Assembly (NCBI GenBank): GCA_965223325.1
Contig: CBDCWI010000001.1
Location: 1,152,001-1,216,000, forward strand
DNA length: 64,000 bases
Origin: Candidatus Multivoradales bacterium
GTDB lineage: Bacteria > Acidobacteriota > Thermoanaerobaculia > Multivoradales > Multivoraceae
Direction of reading: 5' to 3'
Under the pieces are notes generated by a model. That model worked only from the letters and a program-made list of their open reading frames with translations. It did no database searches and was not told the DNA's origin. How positions within the stretch are numbered: position 1 is the first letter of the stretch; each line of letters opens with the position of its first letter. Shown in pieces: positions 45,047 to 48,251 of the stretch. The position numbers and the translations under genes were made by a program.

Positions 45047-46813
45047 ATGAAGTCTATCTGCCCAACCTCTCGGAGCGTTTTCCTCGTTTTCGGGCTGCTC
45101 GCGTTGTGCGGCGTCGTACCTATCGCGGCGCAGGAGGAGGGGGAACGCACCGCGCCGCCGCGCATTTTCGTAGAAACGGTCAACGTCGATGTGGTGAATG
45201 TCGATGTGTACGTGCGCGACAAGGAGGGGAACCCGATCACTGGCCTCACGAAGGATGACTTCGAGATGGAAGTCGACGGGCGGCCGGTAGCGATCAGCAA
45301 CTTCTACGCCGTCAACGGTGACCGCCGCAAGCTGGTTCGCCGAGGTGCCGAGATCGAGCTCAACTCCGAGCGCCAGCAGGAGGCTCCCGAGGCAGCAGAT
45401 CCTGAACCCGACACCACCCCGCCGCCTCCTCCGCCACCAACTCCGGAACAAGAGCTGCTGGTGGTCGTCTACATCGACAACTTCAACCTCACGCCGTTCA
45501 ACCGCAACCGCGTGATGCGCGAGCTGCGCGCCTTCTTGCGCGACCAGCTAAGCCCCGACGATCGCATCATGCTGGCGACCTACGACAGGTTCTTGAACCT
45601 GCGGCAGCCATTCACCAACAATCCGCAAACGGTCAACCGCGAGCTCCTCGAGCTCGAAGACGAGTCGGCGCAGCGTATTCATCGCAACAGTGAACGCAAC
45701 GACATCATCTCCAACCTCAACGACGTCGAGCTCGACAACAACGATCCGTCGTTCGCAGTGACCCAGTTGATGGGCTATGTGGGTTCGGTCTTCAACGATA
45801 TGAACGTGACCGTTGATGCCCTCCACTCGGTGGTCGAGAACCTCGCGGCGTCACCGGGCCGCAAGGCGCTGGTCTATGTCTCAGACGGCGTGCCGATGAT
45901 CGCCGGCGAAGATATGTTCCACCTCGTCAACGGGCTCTACGAGAACAGCGTGACCCTGACGTCGCTCACCGAGTACGACTTGTCGGGGCGCTTTCGCGAG
46001 CTCTCCAACAAGGCCAACGCGAACCGGGTGAGTTTCTACACCATCGACGCCCGTGGGCTTACGGTCAACTCGCAAGGTACGGTCGACCAGGCCAACGCCG
46101 GTATCGCTGGCCAGGCGTCGTTCATCGACCAGATCCGCAACAGCAACATGCAGAGTCCTCTGCAGATGTTGGCCGAAGAAACCGGTGGGCGTGCGATCAT
46201 CAACACCAACAAGTTCCTCCCGGACCTGCAGAAGATCGCTACCGACTTCGACTTCTACTACTCGCTCGGCTACACCCCGGCAAAGGGTGGCGACGGGCGA
46301 TACCACGACATCAAGGTCAAGCTGAAGAACAAGCCGCGAGGCACCGAGGTCCGTCACCGCAGTGGCTATCGCGACAAGTCGATCGAGTCGCAGATGGTTG
46401 ACGGCACACTTTCGGCGCTGCACTTGAACCTGCAGCTGAATCCCATCGGGGCGCGGATTATTTTCGGTCCGCCTGAGGCGGCCGGAGCGGGAACGTACAA
46501 GCAGCCGATGATTGTCGCGGTGCCGTGGGAGAGCCTGACTCTGATTCCGAGGAATGGGATCTACCAGGGCAGCCTGCGATTGTGGGTGGTGGCGAAAGAC
46601 GAGGAAGACAAGTCGAGCGAACCGCAGGAGATCCTGGTGGACATTGCGGTGCCCGAAGGTGAGTTGGAGGAGGCGAAGACGAAGCCCTGGGGGTACAAGT
46701 TGGAGCTCAACATGGAGGGGGGTTATCACGACGTTGCGATCGGGGTGCGTGATGATCTTGGGGCTACTAAGACTTTTCTTCGTGAAGGGGTTCGGTTGCC
46801 TTCGCGTGGTTAG
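45047..46813 (+). CDS. Acidobacterial-type VWA domain protein
   Basis: Signal peptide; VNVDVYVRDKEGNPITGLTKDDF, GRKALVYVSDG, YTIDARGL, LAEETGG, YYSLGYTP, YHDIKVK, RHRSGY. Confidence 0.88.
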   Translation: MKSICPTSRSVFLVFGLLALCGVVPIAAQEEGERTAPPRIFVETVNVDVVNVDVYVRDKEGNPITGLTKDDFEMEVDGRPVAISNFYAVNGDRRKLVRRGAEIELNSERQQEAPEAADPEPDTTPPPPPPPTPEQELLVVVYIDNFNLTPFNRNRVMRELRAFLRDQLSPDDRIMLATYDRFLNLRQPFTNNPQTVNRELLELEDESAQRIHRNSERNDIISNLNDVELDNNDPSFAVTQLMGYVGSVFNDMNVTVDALHSVVENLAASPGRKALVYVSDGVPMIAGEDMFHLVNGLYENSVTLTSLTEYDLSGRFRELSNKANANRVSFYTIDARGLTVNSQGTVDQANAGIAGQASFIDQIRNSNMQSPLQMLAEETGGRAIINTNKFLPDLQKIATDFDFYYSLGYTPAKGGDGRYHDIKVKLKNKPRGTEVRHRSGYRDKSIESQMVDGTLSALHLNLQLNPIGARIIFGPPEAAGAGTYKQPMIVAVPWESLTLIPRNGIYQGSLRLWVVAKDEEDKSSEPQEILVDIAVPEGELEEAKTKPWGYKLELNMEGGYHDVAIGVRDDLGATKTFLREGVRLPSRG

Positions 46814-46818
46814 TGCTT

Positions 46819-46916
46819 GATTCGATTCGGATCCGGATCGGATGGATTCGGATCGATTCGGATCGATTCGGATCGGACGGATCGGAGGTCGGACGGGTCG
46901 GAATGGGTGGGTTGGG
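46819..46916. repeat. Low-complexity GATTCG/GATCG tract grading into G-runs
   Basis: GATTCGGATC x3 perfect at 46845-46874; GGG runs at 46895, 46905, 46909, 46914. Confidence 0.9.
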
Positions 46917-46921
46917 TCTTG

Positions 46922-47158
46922 GACTCCGCCGCGTCGGAACGGAAGACACGCGGTACGGCACGGCGGCGCTTCGCGGAACTGCGATGGGTGGCGCCGCCTG
47001 CGCTCTCCGGCCGCGTGGACCTGCCGAGGACTTCCTAGGTCCGTGCTCTTGCGACCTCCGAGAGCACCTCCCACGTGTCTTCCGTCCCGACGCTCTCGAC
47101 CGAAGGACGCAACGCCGGTATGGGGGGTGGCCGGAGAAGGTACTGCCCGAGGGCTTGC
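46922..47158 (-). repeat. Structured intergenic repeat, copy 1
   Basis: Near-identical to 47226-47458 (offset 304); 23-bp inverted arms at 46931-46953 and 47071-47093. Confidence 0.9.
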
Positions 47159-47225
47159 GAAGCGACCTTTGTACAGTGCTACTTCGATAGGCCTCTGTTC
47201 GGGTGGATGGTGGGTGGGGGTCTCA

Positions 47226-47458
47226 GACTCCGCCGCGTCGGAACGGAAGACACGCGGTACGGCACGGCGGCGCTTCGCGGAACTGCGATGGGTGGCGCCG
47301 CCTGCGCTCTCCGGCCGCGTGAAGCTGCCGAAGAATTCGAAGGTCCCTGCTCTTGCGACCTCCGAGAGCACCTCCCACGCGTCTTCCGTCCCGACGCTCT
47401 CGACCGATGTTCGCAGCGCCGTTCTGGGGGTGGTGGCCGGAGAAGGTACTGCCCGAGG
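47226..47458 (-). repeat. Structured intergenic repeat, copy 2
   Basis: Arms at 47235-47257 and 47375-47397. Confidence 0.9.
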
Positions 47459-47541
47459 ACGAACGGGAGGCCCTTCTCGCGCCGCTACGACGGCGGACGT
47501 TCGGGCCGAATGGAAGCTGTCTCTGCCCCGAGGATCGAAAG

Positions 47542-47605
47542 CTCGATCGATGAACGCAACGCCGGTCTGGGGGGTGGACGGAGAAGTTACTGCCCGAGGG
47601 CTTGC
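47542..47605 (-). repeat. Partial third copy (64-bp flank module only)
   Basis: Matches 47095-47158 (CGCAACGCCGGT...GGAGAAG.TACTGCCCGAGGGCTTGC). Confidence 0.85.
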
Positions 47606-47616
47606 TGGGTGGCGCT

Positions 47617-48018
47617 TTAGCTTCGCCAGTTCTCGGTCGACAGTTCCCCGACCTTTCGGAATTCACTCTCGTTGTCGGTAACGAGGATGAGAGAGGCGGA
47701 GAGGGCCTGGGCGGCGATGAGCATGTCGTTCGGGCCGATCGGTTGTCCGGTGCGCTCTAGATCTGCTCTTAGAACGCCGTAGCGCGCTGCTGCTTTGGTG
47801 TCGAAGTCGAGCGCCGCGATGTCTTCCAAGACGCGATCGATCCGTTCGTGACTCTCGTTCCTACGCGCGCTCTTGTCGGCACCGAACCGTAGCTCCGCCA
47901 CCGCGATCGAACTGATTGCCAGATCCTCCGGCGATAGGGTGCGCAGGCGCTGTGCGACGGTCGGGTGGCGACCGGTCAGGAAATCGATCACAACGTTCGT
48001 GTCGAGCAGGTACTTCAA
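47617..48018 (-). CDS. vapC: PIN-domain toxin VapC
   Basis: YLLDTNV, SSIAVAEL, IGPNDMLIAAQAL, LVTDNESEF; overlaps the antitoxin stop by 4 nt. Confidence 0.95.
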   Translation of the reverse strand: MKYLLDTNVVIDFLTGRHPTVAQRLRTLSPEDLAISSIAVAELRFGADKSARRNESHERIDRVLEDIAALDFDTKAAARYGVLRADLERTGQPIGPNDMLIAAQALSASLILVTDNESEFRKVGELSTENWRS

Positions 48019-48251
48019 TCGAAGTCCGGAGCGGGTTCGACTTCAGGAGGATCCTCTGGATAGGGAAACTCTTCTGCCGAGCCGGCCAGTTCGAAGAAGC
48101 CTGAGGACCATCGCTTGCGAAGCGGTTCGAGAATCACCCGCTGGCCCTCTTTGTAGATGAGAACCTCCTCGTCATCGCCGAACCTGTATTTGACCGGGAG
48201 CCGCACGGCCTGACTGCCGCCGCTCTTGAAGATCTTCGCTGTGTCCGCCAT
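48015..48251 (-). CDS. vapB: AbrB/MazE-type antitoxin VapB
   Basis: TAKIFKSGGSQAVRLPVKYRF, acidic C-terminus. Confidence 0.93.
   Translation of the reverse strand: MADTAKIFKSGGSQAVRLPVKYRFGDDEEVLIYKEGQRVILEPLRKRWSSGFFELAGSAEEFPYPEDPPEVEPAPDFD

Follow-up and report, generated by a model that had tools for sequence, protein, structure and literature searches.

We analysed a 64,000-nt stretch of DNA, hereafter the window, from a Candidatus Multivoradales bacterium of the class Thermoanaerobaculia (GenBank assembly GCA_965223325.1, contig CBDCWI010000001.1, positions 1,152,001 to 1,216,000 of the forward strand). In it, a gene for a VWA-domain protein and the toxin gene vapC converge on a gap of 803 nt from stop codon to stop codon, which contains the whole of a repeat array: two hairpin-forming copies of an element in tandem and three copies of a 64-nt module that flanks it. 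Here we describe the element as a member of a previously undescribed family of ~190-base branched hairpins, which by kind is a dispersed foldback intergenic repeat, and weigh how the family spread and why its pairing persists.

A repeat array between two convergent genes

The array sets in 9 nt past the stop codon of the plus-strand VWA gene, whose orientation it shares, and ends with the third module copy 12 nt from the vapC stop codon. The features of the locus, in window positions, are as follows.

45095..46813, plus strand: VWA-domain protein gene (TIGR03436 acidobact_VWFA), from the list of open reading frames (ORFs); start approximate, stop 46813
46822..46902, plus strand: G/T-rich microsatellite, about five units of TCGATTCGGA and then about four of CGGATCGGA, between the VWA stop and hairpin 1 (Tandem Repeats Finder)
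46913..47103, plus strand: family copy 1, a full-length match to the 195-position covariance model (cmsearch, 82.6 bits, E 1.6e-16)
46931-46953 / 47071-47093, plus strand: outer stem of copy 1, an inverted repeat of 23 nt, 91% complementary
46962-46969 / 46991-46998, plus strand: helix H1 of copy 1, GGCGGCGC / GCGCCGCC (sequence and fold)
47000-47014, plus strand: 5' arm of helix H2 of copy 1; the family-homologous 3' arm lies within 47051-47068
47095..47158, plus strand: 64-nt flank module, copy 1 (repeat search), containing GGCCGGAGA (47129-47137)
47217..47409, plus strand: family copy 2, the tandem duplicate of copy 1 (cmsearch, 81.8 bits, E 2.3e-16)
47235-47257 / 47375-47397, plus strand: outer stem of copy 2, an inverted repeat, 87% complementary
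47399..47458, plus strand: 64-nt flank module, copy 2, 85% identical to module copy 1 (BLAST)
47542..47605, plus strand: 64-nt flank module, copy 3, 91% identical to module copy 1, with no hairpin in front of it
47617..48018, minus strand: vapC, PIN-domain toxin (Pfam PF01850, E 5e-19), convergent with the VWA gene; stop 47617
48015..48251, minus strand: antitoxin with a MazE/AbrB-type fold (Pfam PF04014, E 8.5e-06), upstream of vapC and in one operon with it

An initial annotation made from the letters alone had reported two copies 304 nt apart, a third copy of the flank module and inverted arms of 23 nt, and all of these were borne out. The direct repeat 46903-47126 / 47207-47430 has 91% identity at a spacing of 304 nt; by BLAST it reaches 46906-47152 / 47209-47458 (~250 nt) with 92% identity. 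The microsatellite at 46822-46902 had gone unmentioned. The array had been placed directly downstream of vapC, which holds for the minus strand; on the plus strand it also begins just behind the VWA stop codon. The VWA gene matches NCBIfam TIGR03436 at E 1.1e-60 and no Pfam family at E<=0.001. No canonical intrinsic terminator or terminator-like site was found in the gap (46814-47616).

The 64-nt module is a single-locus sequence in its own genome, as judged by BLAST. Local alignments against five candidate regions did not identify it as a partial copy of the element, whether of the 3' half or of the 5' start (p 0.115 to 0.965 against shuffles). Just before hairpin 1, at 46896-46917 on the plus strand, four G3 tracts with short loops form a canonical G-quadruplex motif, of a kind that is rare in this genome at 0.028 per kb per strand. 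Such a motif occurs in only 3 of 36 family flanks, and we rejected it as a family feature: the G-richness is general, the quadruplex motifs are not.

A family of branched hairpins with a common plan

When one copy was searched against its own genome, only the central 58 nt (46957-47014) recurred, at 76-86% identity and in more than 12 places on both contigs (C1 and C2 below). With their flanks added, these places are ~190-nt hairpins that follow a common plan, in which a long outer stem leads to a three-way junction from which two helices branch, the invariant H1 and a second one, H2. To describe this plan, 17 copies were aligned with MAFFT without fitting to structure (alignment A1), and a consensus fold was derived from this alignment. 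The covariance model (R1) has 195 positions and 46 pairs. A second alignment (A2) holds 18 copies from the window and from four further genomes (G010, G015, G028 and G039); it was fitted to the model and so is biased towards it.

Both window copies align end to end with the model on the plus strand. The 23-bp stem of the initial annotation corresponds to the variable outer stem of the family, and its inner hairpin GGCGGCGC/GCGCCGCC, found in the place given for it, to the invariant inner helix H1. The segment TCTCCGGCC (47004-47012) is the 5' arm of H2, whose 3' arm in the window copy lies inside the hairpin at ~47051-47068 and pairs partially, GCTCTC with GAGAGC. A weakened H2 with the 3' arm CCTCCGAGAG is common to the window copies and to G010, which belongs to another genus, and is therefore a trait of the subfamily, not a local accident.

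Subfamilies differ by wholesale replacement of the outer stem sequence. Across four genomes the nucleotides of junction and loops are conserved, and the loop of H1 and the apex of H2 each have a conserved motif of the CTGCG..GG type. In the main subfamily of the own genome, conserved left and right flanks form an extra outer inverted pair, which is found neither in the window copies nor in the G010 copies. The left end of this subfamily lies 2-4 nt past a stop codon at three loci and 15-25 nt past it at others.

Neither a known RNA family nor a protein accounts for these sequences. Rfam 15, searched in E-value mode, has no family for the element: the best matches in the region (E 1.9-8.7) lie outside it, and ten other copies gave two chance matches only. 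Across loci, ORF matches were short, in several frames and confined to the repeat, with no frame-conserving pattern, and the indels of the family alignment are not multiples of three. The initial annotation had named an Rfam match, a lack of covariation or a conserved ORF as signs against a structured element; we found no Rfam match, no conserved ORF and, as described below, covariation.

Pairing is maintained symmetrically on both strands

In A1, 92.8% of cells were in standard pairs, compared with 80.9% in shuffled controls and 41-49% in slid controls. Double changes occurred in 21 of the 46 pairs, none of 500 shuffles reached the covariation score, and about ten pair types were private to single copies. 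The corresponding values for A2 were 84.5% of cells paired, 63.5% after shuffling, and double changes in 28 of the 46 pairs; all of these covariation values come from mutually related copies and, for A2, from an alignment fitted to the model. H1 showed no covariation within the own genome. Elsewhere, double changes were present in two of its eight pairs, and in a weak copy from a genome of the same genus (G001) its sequence had changed and its pairing was kept.

The initial annotation had argued for a single-stranded structure on the minus strand. Indeed, two to three outer-stem positions of the window copies read A-C on the plus and G-U on the minus strand. The argument, drawn from so few positions in two duplicated copies, does not generalise. 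Over 35 copies, G-U and A-C cells numbered 24 and 19 in A1, 22 and 36 in A2, and 46 and 55 in total, with no excess of G-U over A-C; because every A-C becomes a G-U when the opposite strand is read, neither strand is favoured. Likewise, the fold of 46925-47140 has nearly the same energy on the plus strand (-112.6 kcal/mol, z -2.67) and on the minus strand (-111.3 kcal/mol, z -3.04), both modest when set against shuffles. Template-switch correction of quasi-palindromes can yield paired changes in DNA without selection on RNA. It can thus mimic covariation, and covariation alone is therefore no proof of an RNA. Overall, the pairing of the family is real and carries no strand-specific signal.

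A crossing helix had also been proposed, between TCTCCGGCC in the hairpin and GGCCGGAGA (47129-47137) outside the stem. The 9-bp complement is present as described, but it does not carry the meaning given to it. After dinucleotide shuffling of the 3' flank, a complement of at least 9 bp to the hairpin interior still turned up there in 50 of 1000 trials with copy 1 and in 116 of 1000 with copy 2. The window copies are duplicates of each other, so their two crossing helices count once. In the G010 copies, the closest relatives of the window subfamily, H2 has no such downstream partner, and in module copy 3 the equivalent GGACGGAGA is no longer complementary to the H2 arm. With chance-level frequency in shuffles, absence from G010 and loss of the match in module copy 3, we rejected the helix as a conserved pseudoknot.

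The family is restricted to one lineage

In the own genome, the covariance model gave 31 matches at E<=0.01, 7 of which are weak reverse-strand echoes of strong matches. The remainder are 24 full or partial copies, which occupy 20 loci in 6.7 Mb, and partial and decayed copies occur at loci other than that of the window. Among 61 relatives, the own genome counted, five had matches: the own genome, G010 (six), G015 (one), G028 (eight) and G039 (one). A closer look at five further genomes with the model revealed one divergent, weak copy of 34.4 bits in G001 and no copy in G003, G007, G011 or G012. In a phylum-wide sample of 151 genomes, only the own genome and G028 had matches; the large multi-genome runs scored only 16-41 candidates per genome, so that weak copies may be missed.

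The exact core pattern occurs in two stretches of a collection of 185,579 species. One is the record equivalent to G010; the other, inside a coding region of a metagenome-assembled genome of the Kofleriaceae, we rejected as a chance match. Three further stretches with the exact pattern in metagenome contigs were not confirmed by the model. By these searches the family is restricted to one lineage, the own genome and five other genomes of its order, and is patchy among relatives.

No copy was found at an orthologous site: 30 proteins encoded upstream of copies in five genomes showed no similarity among them, and in G001, G010 and G003 the orthologue of the window VWA gene has other genes or sequence behind it, without the element. 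Behind the G003 orthologue there is a gap of ~560 nt with a 16-nt unit in two copies and a 9-nt unit in three, unrelated to the repeats of the window. Searches of the literature on miniature inverted-repeat elements of Acidobacteria, on Multivoraceae and on repeats of Thermoanaerobaculia, taken without supplementary files, yielded no description of the element.

As a separate observation, positions 46940-47090 of the window are identical to a 151-nt contig from a sequencing run of a different study with a different organism label. Another contig of that run covers 46537-46687 with one difference, and the run's share of a 2-kb query was only 0.12.

Copies lie on the 3' sides of unrelated genes

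Gene context was read from gene calls of a home-made codon-usage scorer, trained on the long ORFs of the genome, which is a heuristic and not a validated gene finder. By these calls, a co-oriented gene ends ~10-400 nt upstream of the hairpin at 16 of the 20 own loci, and ~12 of the 20 lie between convergent genes. Exceptions to the orientation are C1:858420, C1:1590612 and C2:2430344, together with the ambiguous C2:269520. At foreign loci the co-oriented upstream gene was present in 13 of 16 cases and at the single G001 copy, giving 14 of 17. When only gene pairs running in the same direction were considered, the orientation bias was ~9 versus 4 and not significant.

Comparing all ORFs up to 3 kb from the copies with one another revealed no recurrent protein family, and no PIN or antitoxin gene stood beside copies other than those of the window. 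Replication-strand bias was considered as a cause of the orientation and set aside, as copies near each other can differ in direction, among them a convergent pair separated by 0.6 kb (no formal test). At C2:1786039-1786234 (plus) and C2:1786685-1786879 (minus), two copies face each other between convergent genes, each at a distance of ~140 nt from the end of the gene it follows.

In composition the flanks are alike. Read on the element strand, the G-C skew of the 100 nt preceding the hairpin is positive for 18 of 19 own copies (mean +0.30), and that of the 100 nt following it for all 19 (mean +0.29), compared with a genome-wide absolute G-C skew whose median is 0.09 and whose 95th percentile is 0.25. 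Of 12 copies from other genomes, 11 have a G-rich 3' flank and 6 a G-rich 5' flank, and the single G001 copy has the same layout of C-poor flanks and an upstream gene. The flanks often contain short tandem repeats, G/T-rich and C-poor, with a unit that differs between copies, for example (GTGGTTG)16; in other copies such repeats take the place that the microsatellite has in the window. The 3' flanks are G-rich, not T-rich, and no U tract follows the hairpin as an intrinsic terminator would have it. Given the orientation of the family and the composition of the flanks, we assign the window copies to the plus strand and the 3' side of the VWA gene, not to vapBC.

At C2:1420314 and C2:2368675, upstream stop-to-stop ORFs run into the microsatellite of the element and end in Ser/Glu low-complexity tails (…SSSSSSSSESESESESEV, …SESEASESEAPESEAE). 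The repeat may add to or alter protein C-termini at these two loci.

Tandem growth and candidate mobilising genes

Linked copies resemble each other more than unlinked ones do: the convergent pair has 94.9% identity, a tandem pair 92.1% and the window pair 91-92%, while identity between subfamilies falls to ~50%. Immediately behind a family hairpin, C1:857092-857647 contains 4.0 repeats of a 139-nt unit (95% identity), with the right-flank motif in each unit, and the (GTGGTTG)16 microsatellite precedes this hairpin. Right-flank modules are also repeated at C2:269 kb and C2:568 kb, and the 64-nt module is present three times in the window. Tandem growth of the 3' side is a habit of the family.

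The own genome has 28 matches to Y1 transposases (PF01797) and 4 to IS110, and genes of both kinds are also present in genomes without the element. The IS110-type genes are as frequent in genomes with the element as in those without it, a comparison of gene counts and not of the sequences flanking them. At the contig ends, C1:2126128-2143849 and C2:4455510-4486968, Y1 transposase genes (PF01797) form dense arrays with several identical scores: the final 18 kb of C1 contain ~7 matches and the final 31 kb of C2 ~11. The pattern suggests that a cassette is repeated there, and its repeats may lie behind the assembly breaks at these ends.

Comparison with known intergenic repeats

Enterobacterial repetitive intergenic consensus (ERIC) sequences, or intergenic repeat units (IRU), are imperfect palindromes of ~100 or more bases, present between genes in tens of copies per genome and patchily distributed between related species; they have a conserved central part, and their mechanism of spread is not established. 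The present family is similarly palindromic and intergenic, occurs in tens of copies, lies beside unrelated genes, has a conserved centre and is patchy. It differs in its ~190-nt length, its three-way core, the exchange of its outer stem between subfamilies, its C-poor flanks with microsatellites and its host class, Thermoanaerobaculia, and has no sequence relation to ERIC. BOX elements of pneumococci are modular, strongly folded and intergenic, with a variable tandem number of one module. The family shares the modularity, the tandem module copies, the folding and the intergenic position; unlike in BOX, the amplified module is the 3' flank (139 nt in four copies, 64 nt in three), its sequence is specific to the subfamily, and again there is no sequence relation.

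Miniature transposable elements with inverted repeats (MITEs) of the Correia type are assumed to be mobilised in trans. The family resembles them in being small, non-coding, multi-copy and intergenic, and perhaps in its inverted-repeat ends (in part after an excerpt of PMC11602168). Of what defines a MITE, a small non-coding dispersed multi-copy unit was found, and an autonomous parent with the same ends and a transposase was not. As to terminal repeats, the whole unit is a foldback, with arms of 23 nt in the window and an arm sequence that differs between subfamilies. In contrast to MITEs, no parent insertion sequence was found, the termini are the least conserved parts, and there are no near-identical unlinked copies. 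Target duplications were not recognised by eye.

Repetitive extragenic palindromic sequences (REPs) are described, in an excerpt of PMC3733652, as short-stemmed palindromes that measure 20-40 nt and bear a GTAG or CGTC tag. The same excerpt has them as probably non-autonomous mobile DNA that may also act as RNA hairpins. Like REPs and their doublets (REPINs), the family is palindromic, extragenic and dispersed, and like REP and REPIN hosts its own genome has many Y1-transposase genes. It is unlike the REPs of that excerpt in its ~190-nt branched unit and in that no Y1 gene is flanked by it. The arm of the window copy starts with GCGTC, and those of other subfamilies do not. Overall, the element shares only generic features with MITEs and departs from REPs and their REP-associated tyrosine transposases (RAYTs) in size, tag and transposase linkage. 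A REP/MITE-like element mobilised in trans, as the initial annotation had suggested, comes close to what was found, a dispersed, non-coding, multi-copy unit beside unrelated genes. The target duplications, parent transposase or RAYT link that would make it a full MITE or REP were not found.

Discussion

Our preferred reading, held with moderate confidence, is that the window element is a locally duplicated member of a lineage-restricted, dispersed, non-coding foldback repeat family that is old, non-autonomous and selfish or neutral. Its unit is the ~190-nt branched hairpin with a variable outer stem and a three-way core of invariant H1 and covarying H2. What the data show is membership of the family, its structure, orientation and distribution, and the tandem duplication. 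We infer that this non-autonomous unit spread in the past, by trans-acting mobilisation, to the 3' sides of many unrelated genes; its copies then diverged, and hairpin and 3' flank were amplified in tandem at several loci including the window. Pairing may have been kept at the level of DNA, through template-switch correction of quasi-palindromes or because a DNA hairpin is needed. The window copies lie in the 3' untranslated region of the VWA gene and, if transcribed, would most likely form a passive stable 3' stem-loop, perhaps a barrier to exonucleases or to read-through.

Several observations weigh against this reading. No sign of recent activity is apparent, as unlinked copies reach at most 87.8% identity over the hairpin. 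The most conserved columns are those of the centre and the least conserved those of the termini, the reverse of a classical transposon with terminal inverted repeats. No mobilising gene emerged: in a BLAST comparison with 18 copies, the regions within 2 kb on either side of the 28 Y1 matches gave 0 matches to element sequence, and no gene is enclosed by split element halves, the genome-wide nhmmer and model matches all being short and gene-free. No target-site duplication was recognised by eye in 11 main-subfamily copies and the G010 copies, whose ends are not exactly defined, and no insertion polymorphism was seen in four sequencing runs, where short-read contigs end at the repeat borders and yield no joints. 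A pure selfish-DNA model also does not predict flanks that are C-poor in composition without a common sequence. Finally, pairing is strong (92.8%) in copies that are only 50-87% identical, and purifying selection on a functional structure would give the same result. The pairing kept in diverged copies, the conserved centre and the C-poor flanks without common sequence keep a functional reading alive.

One functional reading, which we regard as possible and tentative, takes the element for a strand-oriented 3'-end module under selection. Its hairpin would be part of the upstream gene's transcript and stabilise or terminate this mRNA, and the opposite strand, which is C-rich and G-poor, would act as a Rho-loading and pause site that halts read-through from the convergent gene and so insulates convergent genes. 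A co-oriented gene precedes the element at 16 of 20 own loci and, in five other genomes, at 14 of 17 foreign ones, and ~12 of the 20 own loci lie between convergent genes; both point to such a role. So do the strong covariation with private compensatory changes, the junction and loop nucleotides conserved across four genomes, flanks that are C-poor by composition and not by sequence, with the same layout at the G001 copy, and the lack of a canonical intrinsic terminator between the VWA gene and vapC. However, the strand proposed as RNA shows no surplus of G-U relative to A-C, none of the copies is kept at an orthologous locus, and the family was not found in most relatives searched. Partial and decayed copies occur, three or four own and three foreign loci run against the orientation rule, the same-direction gene pairs (~9 versus 4) are not significant, and the gene calls come from a home-made scorer. 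In its boldest form, the family would be an oriented gene-end insulator of a new kind, a hairpin with a three-way core set in C-poor sequence whose copies are kept by selection and not by transposition; this we consider doubtful.

It is somewhat more improbable still that the element is a DNA-level site, a cruciform or single-strand hairpin bound by a protein of the host or of a mobile element in recombination, replication-fork handling or nucleoid organisation, with the core loops as putative binding determinants. Symmetric maintenance of pairing on both strands, the CTGCG..GG motif in the H1 loop and the H2 apex, and the invariance of H1 in sequence, beyond mere pairing, are consistent with such a site. 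Yet no candidate protein is linked to the copies, a symmetric site leaves the strand-asymmetric flanks and the orientation relative to genes unexplained, and 20 loci in 6.7 Mb are few for an architectural site. Very little speaks for a minus-strand structured non-coding RNA array with a pseudoknot, co-transcribed with vapBC, as the initial annotation had proposed: the two to three outer-stem positions that are G-U on the minus strand in the window copies and the 12 nt to the vapC stop are outweighed by the plus orientation of the family, the equal fold energies without a strand-specific signal or family-wide G-U excess, the lack of a PIN or antitoxin gene beside other copies, where vapBC is not a recurrent neighbour, and a crossing helix that is at chance level and missing in relatives, so that this reading is largely refuted.

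If the preferred reading of an old, non-autonomous repeat family is true, the poorly studied Thermoanaerobaculia would gain one undescribed repeat family, and the ~800-nt gap between the convergent VWA and vapC genes would be accounted for. Practical uses would lie in annotation, in the explanation of short-read assembly breaks and as a lineage marker. Pairing kept at 50-87% identity, a conserved centre and flanks shared in composition only place the family slightly above the routine. It may serve as a test case for the persistence of palindromic repeats by template-switch correction or by selection, and for the insulation of convergent genes by repeats in bacteria without U-tract terminators.

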